Source: Octopus vulgaris (Eukaryota). Taken from it: DNA of 64,000 bases. A program made the translations under genes and the position numbers. Shown piece after piece: positions 14,666 through 63,937 of this stretch. Position 1 is the first letter of the stretch. Each line of letters starts with the position of its first letter. The notes under the pieces are model-generated. The model worked only from the letters and a program-made list of their open reading frames with translations. It was not told the DNA's origin and made no database searches. The stretch spans positions 13,578,001-13,642,000 of the forward strand of contig OX597826.1 in the NCBI GenBank assembly GCA_951406725.2, read 5' to 3'.

Positions 14666-14703
14666 TCTTTAACGTTTCGAGCCTACGCTCTTCAACAGAA
14701 AGA
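14666..14703 (-). ncRNA. Minimal type I hammerhead-like motif, 5' pseudo-LTR (identical copy)
   Basis: Same sequence as 10129-10166, offset 4537 bp. Confidence 0.7.
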
Positions 14704-21115: not shown

Positions 21116-21116
<1 letters not shown>

Positions 21117-21360
21117 GTTCAGCAAAATTTAGATTCAAATGAATATGGTACTTAAGTTAGATGCACCAGAATTTTGTATGGTGTTATCCATATAAACACA
21201 TGGGGTGATTATAATCAAAATAAGCAGCAAGATAAATATATGTATTGATGGAAATCCTCTATAAATGGCTGATGATTGCTCAACATTTTAAAACTGTTGT
21301 AATACTTATAATGTTTAATAAAAATGATGTAGCATGAAACGATCGTACCAAATTACCGAA
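21116..21360. mobile_element. Internally inverted fragment of the same family as 32340-32575
   Basis: 21128-21232 is the reverse complement of tail 32460-32568 (agattca.atgaatatggtacttaagtt; aatcaaaataagca.caag), while the hammerhead is on +. (TA)n both sides. Confidence 0.7.
21266..21350 (+). ncRNA. Type I hammerhead ribozyme with long helix II
   Basis: UGG-CUGAUGA-[60-nt hairpin]-GAAAC-GAUC-GUA-CCA. Homologous to 32363-32450. Confidence 0.7.
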
Positions 21361-21373
21361 AAAAAATATATAT

Positions 21374-29976: not shown

Positions 29977-30084
<108 letters not shown>

Positions 30085-30230
30085 GACATAGTATATATTT
30101 AAATACATAGAGAATCCACTTATAGGGATTCCACGTGCTAGAAAGAACAGCTAAGTTCTATAACCACCAAAAATTGGGAATAAGATTCGACAGGAATAAA
30201 TTTGGAAATTAAAAACATTTACCATCTAGA

Positions 30231-30308
30231 TTCCTGGACCAATTAGTTTCTAATCTTCTTTTAGCGAGTCATAGAGAGCTCACAAGGGCTGATTTTCGTT
30301 AGCAAGAA
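30231..30308 (-). ncRNA. Hammerhead-like motif with CUAACGA core (inverted copy)
   Basis: Reverse-complement copy of 30531-30608 with a few substitutions. Confidence 0.55.
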
Positions 30309-30530
30309 CCAACTTATCTACACGAGACAAAACAGGCTACCTGTCCCGTGTACGTACAACCTAACTTTTCAAATTTTCTTCGCAGACGCAATAAACCGCC
30401 AACTTTTAACCGAAAATTATCCAAAAATCTGCAGTATTCAATCATATCAAAGGGAAATGGAATTTAATTAAAGTTAAAAATATTCAATCAAGAAACATAT
30501 AGCATATTTTGTCTCGTGTAGATAGGTTGG

Positions 30531-30608
30531 TTCCTGCTAACGAAGATCAGCCCTTGTGAGCTCTCTATGACTCGCTAAAAGAAGATTAGAAACCAATTGG
30601 TCCAGGAA
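30531..30608 (+). ncRNA. Hammerhead-like motif with CUAACGA core
   Basis: UUCCUG-CUAACGA-[45 nt]-GAAA-CCAAUUGG-UC-CAGGAA. Perfect 6-bp stem I, palindromic stem III, GUC site. Confidence 0.6.
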
Positions 30609-30887
30609 TCTAGATGGTAAATGTTTTTAATTTCCAAATTTATTCCTGTCGAATTTTATCCCCAATTTTTTTTGTGGTTATAGAACTTAGCTGTTCTTTC
30701 TAGCGCATAGAATCCCTATAAGTGGATTCTCTATGTATTTAAATATACACTGTATCGTATGACTAATATATAGTCTTTTTTTACTAAAATCTTTTACGCG
30801 TTGGACCACTGGAAAAGTAATTTTTGATTGAATGCTTTTAACTTTAATTAAATTCCATTTCCCATTGATATGATATATATATACACT

Positions 30888-30941
<54 letters not shown>

Positions 30942-30947
<6 letters not shown>

Positions 30948-31372
30948 CAATTAAGGACAACTTCTTAATAAGGAAAACTTAACAAGAAATTATCTGGTAG
31001 ATAGCGTGAAAGACCTCATAAGAGAAAACATTTCGAAAATAATTCTTTCTTATAACATATTAATTTATATATAGAGGGCATTATTATACATACATGCCAC
31101 ACGCTAAGAGGGACAAAATTAGTCATTTCTACCAAAAATTTTACTAATCCCACCGAATGCAATTTTTCAAAGTAAGACATTTAAAAATATGGACTTGTAT
31201 CACCTGTGATTTCATACCTCTGTATTCATCAGCAAGCCTGGACGTATCATAAATGTCTTACTTTGAAAAATTGCATTCGGTGGGATTAGTAAAATTTTTG
31301 GTAGAAATGACTAATTTTGTCCCTCTTAGCGTGTGGCATGTATGTATAATAATGCCCTCTATATATAAATTA
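30942..31372 (-). mobile_element. 3'-end fragment of a probable Penelope-like element with 5' fold-back
   Basis: Apparently perfect ~123-bp inverted repeat (31061-31183 / 31250-31372) with a hammerhead in the spacer. (TA)n flanks. Confidence 0.7.
31192..31238 (-). ncRNA. Canonical type I hammerhead ribozyme
   Basis: GGCUUG-CUGAUGA-AUAC(AGAG)GUAU-GAAA-UCAC(AG)GUGA-UA-CAAGUC. All three stems and the full core are present. Confidence 0.88.
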
Positions 31373-31389
31373 TATATATATATATATAT

Positions 31390-31614
31390 TGATAGAAATG
31401 GCAAGACAACAAAAGAATGATGGAGACCTCGATATTATGTAACTAGAGGAATTTATCTGTAAATGTAATATGTGACAATTATTCAGTAGCCATGATAAAA
31501 CTCCAAGTTTCGGATGTCGGGGCGGAACCCACGCCGACACCTCTTCAGTTATCTGGTCATAAAAAAAATGCTATGAAAATGACCGTTAAACAGTCCTTTG
31601 TTTAACGGTCATTT
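31390..31614 (-). mobile_element. 3'-end fragment of a probable Penelope-like element
   Basis: Hammerhead 31494-31553. Tail ends in (TA)n. 16-bp perfect hairpin 31577-31614 at the 5' junction. Confidence 0.6.
31494..31553 (-). ncRNA. Type I hammerhead ribozyme
   Basis: GAUAA-CUGAAGA-GGUGUCGG...CCGACAUCC-GAAAC(UUGGA)GUU-UUAUC. Confidence 0.8.
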
Positions 31615-31616
31615 AT

Positions 31617-31689
<73 letters not shown>

Positions 31690-32362: not shown

Positions 32363-32450
32363 GTGCAGCTGAGGATTGCTCTGCATTTAAATTGATGTAA
32401 TGTTTGCATTGTTCAATTAAATGTAGTTGCGTGAAACGATCGTACTGCAT
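32363..32450 (+). ncRNA. Type I hammerhead ribozyme with long helix II
   Basis: GUGCAG-CUGAGGA-[57-nt hairpin incl. CUGCAUUUAA/UUAAAUGUAG]-GAAAC-GAUC-GUA-CUGCAU. Confidence 0.82.
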
Positions 32451-33195
32451 TACTTCTGGATATCCTTGTTGCTTATTTTGATTTTAACCACCTTATTTTG
32501 AAATTGTATGGATAATACCGAACTAAATGCTGGTACCTCAACTTAAGTACCATATTCATCTGAATCTATGTATATATGGCCCGAGGCTATAATCGAAGGC
32601 ACTTACTCGAAGTGACACGCAGAAGGATTTAACCAGGAACCCTACTGTTCAGAAGCAAACTTCTTGTCACACAACCACGCCTTTCCGTGCGCATGTATGT
32701 GCGCATGCATATAATTACATAACACACACATACTTATACACATACACGCACCCACACACGCACCTACACGCACCCCCACACACACATATATGAATATGTA
32801 TACATAAATATACATGTCTATATAAATAAATAAAAATATATCATATACACACGCTACATAGATACATACAAAGGCGCTTTCATGCTTATATGTATATATA
32901 TTTATATAGACCTATGAGGGCGAGAAAGAAAGAAAGAAAGAAAGACAGAAAGGAAGAAAGAAAGAAAGAGTGATGTACGAATAAATACGAAATTAATCTC
33001 TTGGTATGATGGAGACAAAAGAGCGTAAGGAGAGAACCATTCATGTGTGGTCTAAGAGTTTGTTTACGTCTTTCGGTTCCCTTTTTTGCTTGTAAACTTC
33101 GGCTGTATATTCAAATGTATATATATATATTTGGTTGTTTGTTTATGCACTCGTGAGTATGAGTGTATATATGTATATGTATGTATATATGTATG

Positions 33196-33816: not shown

Positions 33817-34745
33817 AGGCGGTGAGCTGGCAGAAATGTTAGCACGCCGGGCGAAATGCGTTGCCATATTTCGTCTGCCGTTACGTTCTGAGTTCAAATT
33901 CCGCCGAGATCGACTTTGCCTTTCATCCTTTCGGGGTCGATTAAATAAGTACCAGTTACGCACTGGGGTCGATGTAATCGACTTAATCCGTTTATCTGTC
34001 CTTGCTTATCCTCTCTGTGTTTAGCCCCTTGTGGGTAGTAAAGAAATAGGTATTTCGTCTGCCGCTACGTTCTGACTTCAAATTCCGCCGAGGTCGACTT
34101 TGCCTTTCATCTTTTCGGGGTCGATTAAATAAGTACCAGTTACGCACTGGGGTCGATATAATCGACTTAATCCGTTTATCTGTCCTTGTTTATCCTCTCT
34201 GTGTTTAGCCCCTTGTGGGTAGTAAAGAAATAGGTATTTCGTCTGCCGCTACGTTCTGACTTCAAATTCCGCCGAGGTCGACTTTGCCTTTCATCCTTTC
34301 GGGGTCGATTAAATAAGTACCAGTTACGCACTGGGGTCGATATAATCGACTTAATCCGTTTATCTGTCCTTGTTTATCCTCTCTGTGTTTAGCTCCTTGT
34401 GGGTAGTAAAGAAATAGGTATTTCGTCTGCCGCTACGTTCTGACTTCAAATTCCGCCGAGGTCGACTTTGCCTTTCATCCTTTCGGGGTCGATTAAATAA
34501 GTACCAGTTACGCACTGGGGTCGATATAATCGACTTAATCCGTTTATCTGTCCTTGTTTATCCTCTCTGTGTTTAGCCCCTTGTGTGTAATAAAGAAATA
34601 GGTATTTCGTCCGGCTTCAAGTTCTGAGTTAAAATTTGCCCGTCATCCTTTCGGGGATGATTAAGTAGGGGTTGGGTACAGGGATCGATGTAATCGACTT
34701 ATCTCCTCCCACGAAATTGTTGGCGTTCTGCCAAAATTTGAAATC
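33817..34745 (+). mobile_element. tRNA-derived SINE (Meta-like central domain) tandem array, 184-bp period
   Basis: Head ggcggtgagctggcagaa with B-box-like gttcaaattc. Junctions at 34049, 34233, 34417, 34601. Confidence 0.9.
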
Positions 34746-39346: not shown

Positions 39347-39645
39347 TGTGGAGGCACATGGCCTAGTGGTTAGAGCAGAGGACTCGCGGTCGAGGGATCG
39401 CGGGTTCGAATCTCAGATCGGTGTGTGTGTGTTTATGAGCGAATCACCTAAGCTCCACGCGGCTCAGGCAGAAGGTAATGGCGAACTTCTGCTGACTCTT
39501 TCGCCACAACTTTCGCCACAACTCTTTCCTCCTGCATCTTGCAGCTCACCTGCGACGGACCGGCGTCCCGTCCAGGTGAGGAACCTATACGCCAATGAAA
39601 CCGGGACACCGGCCCTGATGAGCCAGGCGTGGCTCGAGAAGTAAG
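39347..39645 (+). mobile_element. Third tRNA-derived SINE family (V-domain-like), copy 1
   Basis: tggcctagtggttagagc A box, gggttcgaatc B box, cctgcgacggaccggcgtcccgtccagg domain. Confidence 0.8.
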
Positions 39646-40913: not shown

Positions 40914-41218
40914 TGTGGAGGCACATAGTCTAGTGGTTAGAGCAGCGGACTCGCGGTTGAGGGATCGCGGGTTCGAATCTCAGACCGGGTGATGTGTGTG
41001 TTTATGAGCGAAACACCTAAGCTCCACGCGGCTCCAGCAGAAGGTAATGGCGAACTTCTGCTGACTCTTTCGCCACAACTTTCTTTCACTCTTTCCTCCT
41101 GCATCTTGCAGCTCACCTGCGACGGACCGGCGTCCCGTCCAGGTGGGGAACCTATACGCCAAGGAAACCGGGTAACCGGCCCTGATGAGCCAGGCATGGC
41201 TCGAGAATGAACAAACAA
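40914..41218 (+). mobile_element. Third tRNA-derived SINE family, copy 2
   Basis: Highly similar to 39347-39645. TSD-like ccccacaagt on both sides. Confidence 0.85.
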
Positions 41219-42398: not shown

Positions 42399-42995
42399 GG
42401 CGGCGAGTTGGCAGAATCGTTAGCATGCCGAGCGAAATGCTTAGTGGTATTTCGTCTGTCGTTACGTTCTGAGTTCAAATTCCGCCGAGGTCGACTTTGC
42501 CTTTCATCCTTTCGGCGTCGATAAATTAAGTACCAGTTACACACTCGGGTCGATGTAATCGACTTAATCCCTTTGTTTGTCCTTGTTTGTCCTCTCTGTG
42601 ATTAGCCCCTTGTGGGTAGTAAAGAAACAGGTATTTCGTCTGCCGCTACGTTCTGAGTTCAAATTCCGCCGAGGTTGACTTTGCCTTTCATCCTTTCGAG
42701 GTCGATAAATTAAGTACCTGTTACACACTGGGGTCGATATAATCGACTTAATCCCTTTGTCTGTCCTTGTTTGTTCTCTCTGTGTTTAGCCTCTTCTGGG
42801 TAGTAAAGAAATAGGTATTTCGTCTGGCGTTATGTTCTGAGTTCAAATTCCGCCGAGGTTGACTTTGCCTTTCATCCTTTCGGGGTCAATAAATTAAGTA
42901 CCAGTTACGCACTGGGGTCGATGTAATCGACTTAATCCCCTTCTCTGTCCTTGTTTGTCCCCTCTCTGTTTATTGTGGGCAATAAAGAAATAAGA
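42399..42995 (+). mobile_element. Same SINE, 3-unit array
   Basis: Junctions at 42630 and 42814. Confidence 0.9.
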
Positions 42996-47099: not shown

Positions 47100-47820
47100 G
47101 TTGGCGTGCTGCCAGAAACGTTACGTTCTGAGTTCAAATTCCGCCGAGGTTGACTTTGCCTTTCATCCTTTCGAGGTCGATAAATTAAGTACCAGTTACG
47201 CACTGGGGTCAATATATTCGACTTAATCCCTCTGTCCTTGTTTATCCTCTCTGTGTTTAGCCCCTTGCGGGTAGTAAAGAAATAGGTATTTCGTCCGTCT
47301 TTACGTTCTGAGTTCAAATTCCGCCGAGGTCGACTTTGCCTTTCATCCTTTCGGGGTCGATAAATTAAGTACCAGTTACGCACTGGGGCCAATATAATCG
47401 ACTTAATCCCTCTGTCCTTGTTTGTCCTCTCTGTGTTTAGCCCCTTGCGGGTAGTAAAGAAATAGGTATTTCGTCCGTCTTTACATTCTGAGTTCAAATT
47501 CCGCCGAGGTCGACTTTGCCTTTCATCCTTTCGGGGTCGATAAATTAAGTACCAGTTACGCACTGGGGTCAATATAATCGACTTAATCCCTCTGTCCTTG
47601 TTTGTCCTCTCTGTGTTTAGCCCCTTGTGGGTAGTAAAGAAATAGGTATTTCGTCTGCCGCTACGTTCTGAGTTCAAATTCCGCCGAGGTCGAATTTGCC
47701 TTTCATCCTTTCGGGGATCGATAAATTAAGTACCAGTTGCGTACCAGTCAATCTAATCGACTGGCCCCCTCCCCCAAAATTTCAGGCCTTGTGCCTATAG
47801 TAGATAGGATTATTATTATT
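47100..47820 (+). mobile_element. Same SINE, 4-unit array (180-bp period), last unit with alternative tail
   Basis: Junctions at 47285, 47465, 47645. Followed by further SINE copies 47830-48170. Confidence 0.9.
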
Positions 47821-48279: not shown

Positions 48280-50470
48280 TAGTAAGTGCAAGGTTCAGCG
48301 AAAAGCCGATAACGGCCACTGAAATACGAGAAGTGATTGCACAAGTCGCAAATTGCCAGGCTTAGATAGTCTGCCCTATGAATTTTATGTATTCGTGCCC
48401 GATTTGTCTGGCGACGTTATGTCGAACAGTTACTGACGTTAGTTGGGAAGTGGTGACACTGCTGAAGAAGGACGCCAACAGTGGGGACATACTAGGGATT
48501 TTTCGGCCCACAATTCTACTAAACACTAAGTTTAAGATTTTGGTCAAGGTGTTGGCGAAAAGGTTGGTGATTGTCGTTGGTTATCTTGTAGGAGAAGTAC
48601 AAACATGCACAATCCCAAACAGGTCTATCCACGACAACCTCCACCTTATGCGATACATCATAGAGAGGGCTGGAACTAAAGCTGGCTTCGGTGGGGCCCT
48701 GATCCATTTGGATCAATCAAATGCATTCGATAGAGTCGAGCATCGCTACCTGGAAGCTGTCCTTAAAGCGGACAGTTTCGAACCCTTTTTCAGAGGGTGG
48801 ATCGCTGTATTGCACAGCGGAACCTTCTCGGTGGTCAAAGTAAATGGCCATCTATCAGAACCGCTTAGCATCGTACACTCGGTCCGTCAGCGCTGCCTAA
48901 TGTCACCACTTCTGTACGTGCTGGCTCTCGAGCCGAGAAGTAGGCGAGCTTGCGACTGGGCACCTGGAGAGGCTGTCAGGTGGCCCCGTCGGACGCTAGA
49001 CTGCCGGACTAGTTAAATTGCTCGGGTTCTGGTTTGGTCTCGACCACCCGGTCGATAAGAACTGGGACAAGGTGACGAACAGGATGGTCAATCTTATCCA
49101 GAAATGGGTTGAGAGGAAGCTGTCCTTGAAAGGTCGGGCAGAGGTGGCGAATACCTACAACACCTCCGTCATCATTTATCATCTGACGGTTGTGCCTTTC
49201 CCCAGTTACTGCTTGATCAAGTTGGAGTGTCTCTTGTTCATGTTCTTGTAGAAGGGGCGCGTTTCAATGGTCAGGCAGTCAATCTACTGTCAGCTCCCTC
49301 TGAGTGGCGGCTTAGGCATGCCGTGGCTTTTGATGGGCAGATATGCGCTCAGATTGCGCCATCTGCAACGATTTCTAGAAGATGAACGTGTGTGGGCTCC
49401 GTTTGTGAGGCACATGTGTCCGCAACTCGTCTCTTTAACGGAGCTGCAGTCCTGGGTGAAGGGTAAACCAAGAGTGGGCGCCTGGCACCTAGAATGTCGT
49501 CAGACGCTCACTGTCCTCTACCAGTCGGGCAGTAGGATCGGTGGATGTTCCACTTTAGCAATCTATAGACGATTAGTGACGGGAAAGTGCGACGACGTCC
49601 TAAGGGAAACTGGGCGTTGATGAAGATGAACTGACTAGTATGTTTCGGAGGACTTTTCGGTCGGGGACTATTATGGATAATTTCCAGGTGTCTTTGGCTT
49701 GGCGGTACTACCGGGGTGGGGGTGGGGCACCACCGGTTAGTGGTAAACTCTACAGTCACAGATGTGCTGGCAGACGGGCTTGACCGAGGTGCACGCAGAG
49801 CAACGAAACCGTTCTGCATGCACTCATTCAGTTTCCGGTAATTGTTGACTTATGGAGTTATGCCGAACAGCTGCTGTCGCGTGTGGAACGGATCCGTCAG
49901 TCGTCCGCCCCATAGTGATGATTGTCCTGCTGTCCTCCTTTAATCGGGCAGACAAGGCAGTTTTCCTTTACCTGGTTGCTGTGGCGAAAGAGGTTGTCTG
50001 GTGGACGAGGCTGAAAGGAACGGGGACAGTGACGTTCCTCTTTAGTAAAGGCCTCATCGACTTTTTAAGTTTCACTTGAAAACCAAAGTGAGGGTGGAGA
50101 GGCGAGTGTTGACCTCGAGTGAATTTATGAAAAGGAGTGTGAAAGTTGCGAAAATGGCAAGAGTGGATGGTGCCACTCTCAATGTAGAGCTGTGAGTCGG
50201 AGGAAAGGAGTTGGAAAAGGTATCCGTCCGAGGTATTCAGGGTCGTCTTGGATGGTGGGGATATCCCTAGGGGTCCTCCTCTGTCAGAAGGACCTCTATC
50301 ACAATTTTCTTTTACATATTGCTGCACACTATATATACCTCTCTTCTTTTAATGTAAACTGTATATACCATTTTTTTTCTTGTCATTCCATTATGTATAA
50401 GCCCCCAATTTTTATGTCTATCTTTGTATTGTCCCTTTATTCTTCGCCTTGGTGGTAAATAAAAGAAATT
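48280..50470 (+). mobile_element. 5'-truncated, decayed L1/Tx1-type LINE (RT pseudogene)
   Basis: FRPTILLNTKFKILVKVLAKRL, LDQSNAFDRVEH, SVRQRCLMSPLLY, LSLKGRAEVAN, GGLGMP across broken ORFs. YADD region appears deleted. Ends aataaaagaaa(tta)n. Confidence 0.85.
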
Positions 50471-53252: not shown

Positions 53253-54430
53253 CACTGAACCGCAAAAGAAACGCAAGACGTGTGTGACTGTGAAATATGT
53301 TTTAATTTCATTATGTCAGAGATAAATTTTGATAAATCTGATAAAATCAATTTCTTGGATGCACTTTGGCCACATTCTATGGGTCGTTGTCATCTGTTCT
53401 GGTAGTGAGCAGATCCAGCACATCGAGACATGTTCAATACCGTGTATGGCCTCCCTGGGTGTTCAAAACAGTCACACACCGTCGGTACATGGAGTGCATG
53501 AGGTGGTTCTCAAAAGCCATTTGCATCTGTACCCACACCCTGAGGAAAGCTGCCTAGTGTCGTCAGCCTTGGGACCACCTAATTCAGCATTCTCTGGATT
53601 TCATCCTACAAGTGCTTAATTGGGTTCAAATCCGATCTGAGAGCTGGCCACGGCATGGTTCTTTTGTTGTACTGACGCAGGAGGTCCATGGTGATCCTGA
53701 CCGTGTGGAAGGGAGCATTGTCTTGCTGGAACACGTGGCAATGGTGACACGGAAAGAAGAGCACGATGTGAGGTCTGAGGATTTGGTCAACGTAGCGTTG
53801 CGCTGTGATGCCATTCCCTCTGCCTGCACCAACATTTTGGAACACATGGAGCCCAATATTCTTATTCAAGCCTATAGTACCCCAAACCATGATGCTTTGG
53901 TCACCCCACGCGTCTCTCTCCATCTCTGTAGTGTTCACACACCCCCCCACACCAAACCCTCATTCTGCCATGCGAGATAGAAACTTAGTACCGGCTCTCG
54001 TCAGGGAAGACTATCGACCTCCATTGTTGACGCCGCCAAATGTCAGTGCTGTGTAGCCCACTGTAGTCGTGCCTGACGGTGACGGGCGGTGAGGACAGGC
54101 CGTCGGGCAGGACGACAACAACGCAGATTGTTGGCGGCCAGTCGACATCATACCTTGTAGTCGCTGATGCGACACTGTCCAGTGCCAATGGTCTCGTGAG
54201 CTGTCACGCTGGTCGAGGCGATCACGGCAGTGTTGCAGGTGGATGAAGCGGCCCTGCATGGGCGTGGTCATCCGGGAGCGCCCCCTGCAGGCACGGACTG
54301 CAGTACTGTTGGTGATGTTGTATCGCTATTGCAGGCAATAAATGGTGCTGACACGGTCATTGTAAGCTTTCGCAACAACCAGTTTGCAATCGGCCGACAG
54401 CTTGTTCTCTCCGCCTTTTAGTTTCCTTCA
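53253..54430 (-). mobile_element. Tc1-type transposon relic
   Basis: WRSIVFPDESRY, IMVWGTIG, FQQDNAPFH, WPALRSDLNPIKHL. Confidence 0.9.
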
Positions 54431-57241: not shown

Positions 57242-57836
57242 ATGCACACACACACACACACACAGATGTATGTAGAGAGATAAATAGATAGATAGATATG
57301 TGTGTGTGTATATATATATGTGTGTGTATGTATATATATATATATATATATGTGTGTGTTTGTGTGTGTGAATACATATATAAATATATATAAAATAAAA
57401 GAAGGAAAATGCACACACTTTTCATAGTTTTAATATATTTTAAAATATATTTTAAATATATTTTGTATTGTGTTTGTCGACCGGTTTCGCTTTCGCTAAT
57501 CATGACATTGAAATTATTGTAATTTTGTATTTTCTCAAGAAAATTTTAGTCCATGTTGTATGTGGAGAAGTTTATGAATGAGTGATTCAACAAGTAGAAA
57601 AATATAAGGTTAGGTAATCGGTGATCGTTATTATTGGGGACAAGGGAGGTAATTGTTCTTTTTTCAGGGAGGGGATAAATATGCACAATATGGGTATGTG
57701 ATCATGAATTAAAATATATACTGAAATCAAAGTTGGTTATGCGTTCATATTTCGACGCGTTCACTATTTTTCGCTAAAATTCAATTTAGCAATTCTAAAA
57801 CACATTTCACAATATATAATATATGTATATATATAC

Positions 57837-58081
57837 TTAAGAGACATAACCTCTATTAAGCAATTCCATAATGAAAGATATCCATATTAAATAGAAAAAA
57901 TTTAAATATACTATAATAAATATTATTAAAAAATCAATAAATTAAATAATCATTATTAATGTTTATTTAATTTATTGATTTTTTAAAATAATATTTATTA
58001 TAATATTATTTAAATTTTTTCTATTTAATATGGATAATGTCTTTCAGTATTGAATTGCTTAATAGAGGTTACTTCTCTTAA
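57837..58081. repeat. AT-rich imperfect palindrome (fold-back element) with TTAA at both ends
   Basis: ttaagaga..taacctctattaagcaattc...tatccatattaaatagaaaaaatttaaat mirrored on the right arm. Confidence 0.8.
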
Positions 58082-58172
58082 TTATATACATATACATATG
58101 TATATATATGTATGTATGATTATGTATGTATGTATGTATGTATGTATGTATGTATGTATGTATGTATGTATG

Positions 58173-58489: not shown

Positions 58490-60610
58490 ATAGTAGGCAG
58501 TGTGTTACATATCCCTGGACCCCAATAATTACAAGTATAAACCTGAACTTGCAATCTGGATAGAATAACAGCAGATTTCTCAATAATTCAGAGTAGGTGT
58601 TCACTTTTTCACTGAACCTTAGCCTTATGTTAACATCTGCTGAGCAGCTAATTTCCACAAATGTACATAGTTTCTCTTCTCTATCCCAAATCATTATATC
58701 AGGTTTGTTGTGCTTACATTTTACAGAGGTCTTCACCCCATATTATTATGAGTAGCTATGGCTTCTACCATACAGTGGGTTCTTGTCTTTGTCCTCAGGG
58801 TTATCCTTCCGACGGATTTCATTATAGAGTATCCTAGCTACAACATCATATCTCATTGGTAGATAATACCTTGATGACATTTTCGGACAGCTGCTTATGA
58901 TGTGGGTGATATCTTCGGTGTTAATTTCACAAAGTCTGCATTAGTTGTCAAGTTTTACTGCTTTTCCTGCATCTCTATCCCTTTTGTGCATCAGGTACTT
59001 GGCTGATGTTTCCTCATCTTTGATTGCAAACGCATATCCTTCAAAGTGGGAGGTAGTAATCCGGCTATTGGTCCATGATAGACTGCTTTGATAATCAATG
59101 TTACTATAATCTCGGAGCTTTCTACTAACATATCCATGCATAGTCTTCTGCTCATATAGGCTCATCCTTTCATCTGATGATACGTTGCGATAGAGTCGTG
59201 TGACTTCTTTGGGCATGTATTCTAGCTTATCTGACAAGGAATGTTGGTCAGGGAGCTGCCTTCCAAGTCTTATGATGTTATCAGCCTCATGTGTGCGAAC
59301 TTGGTCAAGGGATGCACTTCGATACTTGGTGGATAAAAGATGTTGCCGAAAGGATATGATACGACATTCAAAGGCATTTAGGATCAATGTTAAGCCTCTG
59401 CCGCCTTGTTTTTGTTTGCTCTACGTCACTGTTTATGTGGAAATTATGAGTACTTGTTAGTATTTTTCGGGTTTTCACATCAACGGCCCGGGTCTCATCG
59501 AGCGTCCAATCAAGCATCCCAAGTGAGTACTGGCACAGCAAACACATTGTGGGCCACGGTTTATTGAATGCAGAGAGTTCTGAGGTCCAAAGTTTCTTTA
59601 TTCGGCTGTAATATTCTTTAGTGACGCGTGTTTTGTTACCGGTGCCATTGTAAGATATGTTTTCATCTACGCCCCCCTTTCTCACAACCATATAACAAGA
59701 TTTATCCTGACCAAAATTCAACCCTACATCCTTTGAGGATGTTGTAACTAGGTCAAGGCTCTTTTTAATTTCATGCATATTCTTTGCATGAAGTTTCAAG
59801 TCATCCACAAACCAACAGTAATTTTGGTATTTCTGTTTCCTTGTGAACCAGTGAGATATCCTTCAGACCTTCGTAACATGGATGACAAGGGGTTTATAGA
59901 CAATAGAAACAACATCACTGAGAGTTTGTTCCCTTGAAATATGCCTCTGCAATACTGTATTCTATCAGTGATAATACAGTTACTCCTTGTGTTTAATTTC
60001 AAGATGGTGGCACACCATGAAGTCAAGTCAGATATGGCTTTGACTATGCGCACTAAAACTTTAGCAAACTGAAGCGCTTCTAGCATCCATGAGTGGGGAA
60101 CAGAGTCAAAGGCTTTCTTGCTACTTTGAAACTAGGTTCCTTCAATGCTCGGCAACTCTGGCATTACAGTTTCGTTGATTAACAATTGCTCGGCACATCA
60201 CCAGACTCCTTTCTTCCCAGCAGCTTGTTCTGCTGTGATGATGTTATTGATTTCACAATGGTCCTAGGAGAGGTTTAAGCATGTTGTACACTTCTTATAC
60301 ATTCAGTTCTGGCATGCAATTGACTAGTAGTTTTTGTCACGTGGTGGTTCTGCATTTGAGGATCAATGTTGTCTCCGCAGAACTAACCAGTGTGGTACGC
60401 TACTGTTCCCATTGAGAGCTAGCTGGTAGAGATTGATAAGATATGGTCGGTAGAAGGTTAGCACCTTGTACCAATATCTAATAATCAAGTCTCTTCCAGT
60501 TGCTTTTCCATCCTGGAGTTTCTGAATCACGGCTGCAAAAGTTTCACCATCATTGTTGCATGTCTTGGGTGTAATGCAGGAGCAATAACTTCTTCGGATT
60601 TCCTCCAGCC
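58490..60610 (-). mobile_element. Decayed R4/Dong-like non-LTR retrotransposon (RT + CCHC + restriction-like endonuclease)
   Basis: KAFDSVPHSW, RGIFQGNKLS, MDDLKL, CRLC..EDITHIISSC, KPDIMIWDREEKLCTFVEISC in broken frames. Confidence 0.85.
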
Positions 60611-60646: not shown

Positions 60647-61245
60647 GGTGGCGAGCTGGCAGAAACGTTAGCATGCCGGGCGAAATGCGTAGCCGTATTT
60701 CGTCTGCCGCTACATTCTGAGCTCAAATTCCACCGAGGTCGACTTTGCCTTTCATCCTTTGAGGGTCGATAAATTAAGTACCAGTTACGCACTGGGGTCG
60801 ATATAATCGACTTAATACGTTTGTCTGTCCTTGTTTGTCCTCTCTGTGTTTAGCCCCTTATGGGTAATAAAGAAATAGGTATTTCGTCTGTCGTTACGTT
60901 CTGAGTTCAAATTCCGCCGAGGTCGACTTTGCCTTTCATCCTTTGAGGGTCGATAAATTAAGTACCAGTTACGCACTGGGGTCGATGTAATCGACTTAAT
61001 ACATTTGTCTGTCCTTGTTTGTCCTCTCTGTGTTTAGCCCCTTGTGGGTAATAAAGAAATAGGTATTTCGTCTGTCGTTACGTTCCGAGTTCAAATTCCG
61101 CCGAGGTCGACTTTGCCTTTCATCCTTTGAGGGTCGATAAATTAAGTACCAGTTACGCACTGGGGTCGATGTAATCGACTTAATCTGTTTGTCTGTCCTT
61201 GTTTGTTCTGTCTGTGCTTAGCCCCTTGTGGGTAATAAAGAAATA
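60647..61245 (+). mobile_element. Same SINE, 3-unit array
   Basis: Junctions at 60878 and 61062. Confidence 0.9.
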
Positions 61246-62374
61246 TGTATGTGTGAACGTATGCATGTATGCATGTACCTGTGATTGCTTTTTAATCATT
61301 CTCAATACATGCTTATAATAGAAATGTGTGAAGACTTGTTAGTATATCCGTGAGTTTTAACAAATAGTGAAAGCCTATACCTAAAATATACAATTGTGCA
61401 CGTTTATTTAGTAATTAGCCGTCACGCTTTCAGCAAGGATAGTGAAAACTATGCTTCACTGATTAAATAAAACTATGTCCAAAACATAGAACGAGTTATT
61501 TCCCTTATTGAAAACAATAGTAGTTACGGACTATTGGTTTTAATCTTACGATGGACACAAGCGAATATTTGTTGGCATATGCCATTTATTGCCTTGCATG
61601 CTTTACAACACACAATAAACCTTGGCTTTAGGGCACCGTAGCCATCCAGGAGGGTTGCAAAGCAAGAAGTAGCATAAAATGTGGAAACAGGAGGACATCC
61701 ATGAGTCATGACTGGATGCGGTCCGCCTCCCTTCCACAGAGTATAAAGAGTTAAGGGTCGAAACACTTGTTTGGAAATGAGATTTCTTTGATGATCTTCT
61801 GCAGTTCATCGCTCCCTAGAGTTTGTTCCTATTATGAGTGTCAGGTCGGAACAAATTCTTTACTTTGGTTCTCTATGTTTTCACATATGCAGTAGTTGAT
61901 GAAAGTTTTCTTTGTGTGTGTGTATATATGAATGTGAGTGTGAAAGAGGGCATAATCAAACATGTACCCAAAGTACTCGCAACTGCGCATGTACCGAAGC
62001 ACCTTTAAATGAAATTAGCTTGTTAATTCTATTTTCCCTGCTAAATTGCTTGTAGCAATAAAAATAAAAAAGTAAGCGAAAACAAAACGTAATATAATAA
62101 AATACTTGAAAAATTAGATTTAAGTGCTTAATTTCAGATTGAGAGATTAGCTATCGCTTTACTTTATAATTGGTGACACGGTCGACAGTTAAGTGATAGA
62201 TAAGTGGTGGGTATCCCGACTCTACGACTGTATTGTATGCTATCTCAGATTGGTGCTAATGTAATTTTGCGTTGGAGATCTAAGCAGCTCTTTTACATAG
62301 ATAGATAGATGCATCCACATACACACACACACACACATACAAACATGCACCCCCACATACTCACACTCACACAA

Positions 62375-63746: not shown

Positions 63747-63937
63747 ATATTAATAGTTATCGCCATACTAATATGGCAGTCTATAAATATAAGACTAAAG
63801 CTGTCGCTGATTAGCTCCAAGAGGCCATCGTGTGTCATATAGCTAGCTAGAGGCGAAGGCCTCTTGGAGTTAATCAGCGACAGCTTTAGTCTTATATTTA
63901 TAGACTGCCATATTAGTATGGCGATAACTATTAATAT
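63747..63937. repeat. Near-perfect 80-bp-arm hairpin (fold-back/MITE-like)
   Basis: Arms 63747-63826 and 63858-63937, one mismatch seen. 31-nt spacer. Confidence 0.9.

Follow-up and report, generated by a model that had tools for sequence, protein, structure and literature searches.

The fold-back at 31061-31372 of the window (the whole 64,000-nt stretch of Octopus vulgaris DNA that was analysed) is probably a short, heavily 5'-truncated insertion of a Penelope-like element (PLE), or a non-autonomous derivative moved by a PLE enzyme. Its membership of this family is inferred from its anatomy and not from homology. As part of the same reading, the hammerhead in its loop is most likely an ordinary pLTR ribozyme of the dimer-working type, with its catalysis predicted, and the hairpin is best explained as a by-product of integration rather than a selected device. 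The sequence-only reading that was followed up here described the structure and did not name PLEs as the element class.

The two arms are exact reverse complements at 123 of 123 positions, with no mismatches and no G-U pairs, and are separated by a spacer of 66 nt, which bears out the mismatch-free fold-back of about 123 bp described earlier. No tandem repeat was found over 31061-31372. The inverted copy ends 14 nt before it reaches the predicted cut site of the ribozyme. The parts of the fold-back are listed in Table 1, together with the full-length PLE of the window.

Table 1. Features of the fold-back and its surroundings, and the full-length PLE in the window
Feature	Position	Strand	Basis or measure
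Unique segment of 119 nt, from the left arm to the next (AT)n tract	30942..31060	-	
Direct copy of the ribozyme's 3' flank, putative 3' part of a pLTR	31061..31183	-	
Unpaired loop of 66 nt, 5' part of the direct copy	31184..31249	-	arm alignment
Type I hammerhead	31192..31238	-	motif reading and descriptor search
Near-palindromic stem III segment, 12 nt; between two molecules 5 pairs, 2 unpaired nt, 5 pairs	31199..31210	-	self-duplex -11.2 kcal/mol
11 nt at the inversion junction, near-copy of 31202-31190 across the cut site	31239..31249	-	11 matched positions and a single gap of 2 nt
Inverted copy, shorter than the direct one, of the ribozyme's 3' flank (upstream arm when read on the ribozyme strand)	31250..31372	+	123/123 complementary to 31061-31183; polarity presumed from the strand of the ribozyme and the anatomy of PLEs
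(TA)n tract directly adjoining the right arm; probable target, common to a neighbouring hammerhead remnant	31373..31389	.	
Full-length Neptune-type PLE	~15812-10033	-	RT and GIY-YIG frame, pLTRs, hammerheads

The complete hammerhead core claimed in the sequence-only reading (CUGAUGA/GAAA/AUA) was found on the minus strand of the loop. It consists of CUGAUGA at 31232-31226 (C3-A9), GAA at 31213-31211 within the GAAA box (G12-A14), the A15.1-U16.1 pair and A17 at 31198 (H17), and the AUA triplet precedes a predicted cut between 31198 and 31197, the same site as was given before. Helix I is open-ended and has 6 bp with one G-U (31238-31233/31197-31192), and stem II has 4 bp with a 4-nt loop (31225-31222/31217-31214); these lengths agree with the claimed stems of 6, 4 and 5 bp, whereas the third does not, as a 5-bp stem III would close a loop of only 2 nt and the monomeric stem III is instead 4 bp with a 4-nt loop (31210-31207/31202-31199). 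Two pairs are off the usual consensus, namely U15.2-A16.2, where the usual hammerhead pair is C-G, and A10.1-U11.1, which is not G-C. For the latter position G10.1-C11.1 is given as the norm in extracts of PMC4209133.

The presence of a hammerhead in the loop far exceeds chance expectation. With stems of at least 6, 4 and 4 bp required, a strict descriptor detected one site in the real window and none when the 64 kb were dinucleotide-shuffled 150 times; relaxed to 4/2/2, the descriptor detected two real sites against 11 in 150 shuffles. When the loop was shuffled 20000 times, a hammerhead of any kind arose in 0 cases. In Rfam the loop motif had no hammerhead match at gathering or at E<=10, which is uninformative because the control, the pLTR hammerhead of the window's full-length PLE, was missed too. 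An alternative type III fold with the junction near-copy as substrate was rejected (+1.4 kcal/mol versus -11.8).

Nearest-neighbour folding, computed without tertiary contacts or Mg2+, gave -5.2 kcal/mol for the active monomer fold versus -10.2 for a misfolded form that has the core paired with stem III. Inside the full hairpin the ensemble is 4.6 kcal/mol below the active monomer fold, and across five of five sequence contexts this gap is 4.6-7.0 kcal/mol. For two molecules the double hammerhead (-22.4 kcal/mol) is more stable than two misfolded monomers (-20.4), and the best cofold (-24.0 kcal/mol) differs from this active dimer. These modelled energies are in favour of a ribozyme that works as a dimer rather than as a monomer, and the motif resembles the dimer type; they lower the expected activity of the monomer, which may still cleave. 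That the loop is able to self-cleave, as was claimed, is not supported as stated by this modelling, with the monomer fold so far above the ensemble and a motif that appears to be dimer-type. A palindromic stem III in a hammerhead of type I is described as a hallmark of PLEs, whose ribozymes act as dimers and have low activity in vitro (PMC4209133; PMC6765202, both in part). Set against PMC4209133 (in part), the folding places just such a palindromic helix III hammerhead inside the putative terminal repeat.

The full-length PLE provides a reference for this arrangement from the same window. Its frame of 891 aa matches RVT_1 (E=1.1e-7) and GIY-YIG (E=0.0064) in Pfam, the N-terminal part of the ORF lying in another frame than the remainder, and its protein has 742 relatives at E<=1e-50 among 8000 candidates scored. 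It carries a CX4CX2C linker, of the kind assigned to Neptune elements (extracts of PMC8557442). The pLTRs are about 1.24 kb long and identical at 1235 of 1238 aligned positions, each contains a minimal hammerhead (cores at 14698 and 10161, with U at position 6), and 103 nt past the cut the element reaches its 3' end, at an internal TA run that passes into (TA)n. A diverged fragment of this pLTR was also seen at 36249-36050.

From the cut to the next (TA)3 there are 124 nt in the fold-back, 110 nt for the cut at 31499, 126 nt for 32444, 86 nt for 57479, and 103 and 102 nt for the two pLTRs; the other hammerhead remnants among these end 86-126 nt before TA tracts. A spacing of 80-150 nt was found at six of nine candidate sites (5/8 with the two pLTRs counted once) against a background frequency of 7.9% for (TA)3 in this range, on a site list that was partly hand-picked and with a range chosen after seeing the data. 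The three sites outside it are 21347, 36151 and 18591. In the fold-back itself, the 3' end lies at an AT-rich target some 100 nt beyond the ribozyme, again a post hoc range, with TATATATA inside the left arm at 31073-31066, 124 nt past the cut, and (TA)n at the right arm.

Under the PLE reading, the element's endonuclease would nick AT-rich DNA at the (TA)n tract and reverse transcription would begin within the RNA of the element, 124-137 nt 3' of the hammerhead, at a point rich in TA. One cDNA would pass the ribozyme and halt 17 nt upstream of its core, and a fold-back or template switch would then append a second, shorter copy in the opposite orientation. The product would be head-to-head with the element's 3' end at both outer ends, 31249-31061 being a direct copy of 189 nt (the ribozyme plus 137 nt) and 31250-31372 an inverted copy of 123 nt, and the ribozyme would lie in the loop because only the longer copy, with its extra 66 nt, reached it. 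The geometry, the motif and the parallels within the window are direct observations; the nick, the priming and the switch are drawn from the literature and the anatomy.

The geometry fits a head-to-head inverted, 5'-truncated copy adjacent at the 5' end, where the polarity is taken from the ribozyme strand. An origin during integration by self-priming or template switching, as put forward in the sequence-only reading, is supported and matches the published PLE model, in which self-priming was proposed for head-to-head inverted pLTRs (PMC3846280, in part). PLE insertions are described as 5'-truncated, often with an inverted truncated copy at the 5' end, a one-sided tail and a bias for microsatellites (extracts of PMC8557442 and PMC8969392). 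The inverted pLTR of rotifer Pen2a is 37 bp shorter than the direct one, and TATATATA is present inside that pLTR (PMC3846280, in part), and in Schistosoma paired hammerheads occur on opposite strands 100-700 bp apart (PMC4209133, in part). In vitro, AT-rich DNA is cleaved by an anole PLE, and reverse transcription starts internally, 111-118 nt into the ORF and downstream of the hammerhead (PMC11167929, in part).

No informative target-site duplication (TSD) was found at the fold-back, where the TA context hides any such duplication. The segment 30942..31060, which has no further copy within the 64-kb window, is either host DNA or the one-sided tail of the direct copy; at 119 nt it exceeds the 30-40 nt of the published PLE tail (PMC8557442, in part). 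No microhomology was evident at the inversion junction as read from the sequence, and a perfect cDNA fold-back primed through stem I was rejected, as it predicts a spacer of 8 nt versus the 11 nt observed.

Searches for relatives were negative. In self-BLAST of the window neither the arms nor this hammerhead family recurred within the 64 kb, the fold-back has no similarity to the window's full-length PLE, blastn against plasmids and phages gave 0 matches, and an exact 26-mer of the arm was found in 0 GTDB genomes; one GTDB match to the core motif was discarded as chance since it is without stems I and III. Pfam assigned 0 families to the 11 frames of at least 30 aa in 30940-31620, and tblastn and HMM searches from 120 PLE proteins gave no signal near 31061-31372 and none that was significant at 57.5k. 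As for coding potential in the arm, a 54-codon frame begins 17 nt past the cut; its sole match among 1.84 billion proteins, a saposin-repeat protein (E=5e-5), was rejected as a repeat-summing artefact. The missing PLE coding trace is weak evidence because the full-length PLE of the window also has a long non-coding stretch after its hammerhead.

The fold-back could instead be a MITE or fold-back DNA transposon with terminal inverted repeats (TIRs) of about 120 bp, moved by cut-and-paste, whose spacer captured a PLE hammerhead as a passenger. We consider this unlikely. The arms are perfect terminal inverted repeats around a non-coding interior, the ends can be read as TA-flanked, and the window has fold-backs at 30068-30772 and 63747-63937 without a recognisable hammerhead, all as such an element would have it. 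However, the spacer is almost exactly one intact ribozyme, spaced from the TA-rich end as in the window's PLEs, and there is a single copy in 64 kb. To our knowledge, the ends of the fold-back are also unlike the common starts of transposon TIRs.

It is rather improbable that the insertion derives from a non-LTR retrozyme monomer (a tandem hammerhead repeat with a circular RNA intermediate) that was likewise inverted upon insertion by a PLE enzyme. Helices I and II, at 6 and 4 bp, have the 'canonical' metazoan lengths that are typical of retrozymes (PMC4209133, in part), solo monomers are common and retrozymes are derived from pLTRs (bioRxiv 10.64898/2026.07.22.740005, in part), and a tandem or circular template could have left the near-copy of the cut-site region that is seen at the junction. 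Against this, tandem hammerhead units of 150-400 nt are not found over 31061-31372, where there is one ribozyme only, and mechanistically the proposal is a variant of insertion as a PLE.

A library or assembly artefact, in which a fold-back chimeric read was placed over a genuine hammerhead-bearing remnant, is very unlikely. Such a chimera would have arms that are 100% identical, as they are here, but unique sequence continues past both arms and would require two switches, and neighbouring fold-backs have diverged arms (247/264, 130/137 and 79/80 identical). The decayed arms of these three other fold-backs therefore indicate that such structures are real in this genome.

The least probable explanation is a hairpin RNA gene retained by the host, in which the ribozyme loop would open the hairpin and yield blunt dsRNA for small RNAs. 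It would draw on the predicted hairpin of about -214 kcal/mol formed by a transcript of either strand and on the small RNAs that PLE copies yield in rotifers and flies (PMC3846280, in part). Against it stand the single young-looking copy in a transposon-dense tract, arms free of the mismatches or G-U pairs that an old selected hairpin would be expected to carry, and Rfam miRNA matches far under gathering (the best 53 bits versus 100). No paper on a hammerhead fold-back retrotransposon as a source of dsRNA or siRNA was found in a targeted literature search that covered few subscription journals.

Returning to the PLE reading, the position of the inversion relative to the cut was considered. The inverted copies end just 3' of the cut in both cases available (n=2), by 14 nt in the fold-back and by 3-20 nt in the element at 21116-21365 (the 21k element), whose cut at 21347 is about 19 nt from a TA tract. 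The 21k element and 32368-32568 are two plus-strand copies, 75-80% alike, of a hammerhead family whose stem II is long and whose palindromic stem III has 6 nt, and homology to the uninverted 32368-32568 indicates that in the 21k element sequence from downstream of the ribozyme is inverted and lies upstream of it. This element is unrelated to 31061-31372, and the polarity of its inversion equals that deduced for the fold-back; it has no direct downstream arm, so the parallel is partial. The score of the 11-nt junction near-copy, which was noticed after the fact, was reached by 38 of 20000 shuffled 11-mers, and the segment 31239..31249 is possibly a template-jump scar.

That the hammerhead sets where PLE 5' inversions break is a tentative and doubtful proposal. 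It would have the inverted copy reverse-transcribed from the 3' cleavage product of the ribozyme and the direct copy from uncleaved RNA; alternatively, the reverse transcriptase would jump at a folded or dimerised ribozyme. Ribozyme mutants were unaffected in insertion in vitro (PMC11167929, in part), and the role of the hammerhead in endonuclease-bearing PLEs has been called unclear (PMC8557442, in part), so inversion points relative to the cut bear on that role. If the proposal were both true and general, the ribozyme would act during integration, and a hammerhead in a fold-back loop would be a recurring footprint of cleavage in vivo. The targeted literature search, covering few subscription journals, found no paper tying a ribozyme to the position of an inversion.

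The window consists of animal DNA in which microsatellites and SINE arrays are dense. A SINE-like unit of 180-184 nt, which we take to resemble Octopus repeats, forms tandem arrays at 33867-34611, 42446-42972, 47121-47738 and 60695-61250 and has many solo copies; no hammerhead core was found in these arrays. Two tRNA-headed SINE copies on the plus strand (39351-39636 and 40915-41205) have candidate hammerhead-like boxes at their 3' ends in permuted order, a GAAA box and short palindrome followed by CUGAUGA and a hairpin, with no valid fold established; these ends could be a PLE-derived tail. Two other reverse transcriptase remnants and a weak DDE_3 transposase match were also seen (48366-49013, plus strand; 59371-60131 and 53609-53959, minus strand).

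Other structures with inverted arms or hammerhead-like motifs are present. An older fold-back at 30081-30874 has arms identical at 247 of 264 positions and an extra inverted segment of 54 nt (30441-30494 versus 30821-30874); no hammerhead was recognised in it, and it can be read as a pair of head-to-head copies, differently permuted, of a unit of about 480 nt between (TA)n tracts. The fold-back at 63747-63937, near a TA run, has 80-nt arms (79/80) and a 31-nt loop; no complete hammerhead was seen in this fold-back. On the minus strand, a second hammerhead-like motif (core 31548, cut 31499) lies within 31391-31614; its stem II is long and bulged, and its stem III is short and palindromic. It is 110 nt from the (TA)n tract of the fold-back and about 300 nt from the first hammerhead, and 5' of it is an imperfect palindrome of 38 nt (31577-31614). 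The tract 31373..31389 looks like a repeated insertion target. A degenerate minimal hammerhead lies within 57390-58109 on the minus strand, its cut at 57479 being 86 nt from a TA run, and a fold-back with 146-nt arms is at the far 5' side. There was no significant protein match in 57390-58109, and a PLE coding end was read there by eye only.

The earlier view that the event is recent is reasonable unless the arms were homogenised, as 0 mismatches in 123 positions give a 95% bound of 2.4% on arm divergence. With the calibration of JC 0.09 to 25 My (PMC13282606, in part), and if the arms were not homogenised, the fold-back would be under about 3 My old. The same source, in part, lists 31 recently active PLE families in O. 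vulgaris. Both PLE terminal-repeat hammerheads and head-to-head inverted copies are already published, and a single locus is for that reason of little weight. If it is a PLE, the fold-back shows a PLE inversion junction in a clean and young form.

Compared with the inverted pLTRs of endonuclease-bearing PLEs (Adineta vaga Pen2a, PMC3846280; PMC8557442 Fig. 2; both in part), the fold-back is alike in that the inverted copy is head-to-head and shorter, and in its direct repeat of about 190 nt, its internal TATATATA, its AT-rich target and the hammerhead within the repeat. It differs from them in that the copies have no ORF between them or next to them, neither a clear TSD nor a 30-40 nt tail was identified, and no sequence homologue was found. 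The loop ribozyme shares with the PLE pLTR hammerheads of Cervera and de la Pena 2014 (PMC4209133, in part) a type I topology, an intact core, a palindromic stem III and a predicted preference for the dimer. It differs from them in a stem III insert (10 nt) that exceeds that of the minimal forms, in A-U at 10.1-11.1, in lacking the extra nucleotide between 9 and 10.1 and in its canonical helices (6 and 4 bp).

Metazoan non-LTR retrozymes (PMC7229834; bioRxiv 10.64898/2026.07.22.740005; both in part) are alike in being non-coding and low in GC and in their canonical helix I and II sizes, and the molluscan ones are also without the usual tertiary-contact nucleotides (same sources, in part). Unlike retrozymes, the fold-back is not tandem, has one ribozyme and is an inverted and not a direct repeat. 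MITEs and fold-back DNA transposons are short and non-coding with long terminal inverted repeats in a TA context, as is the fold-back, whereas its interior is an intact ribozyme that is placed as in the 3' ends of PLEs.
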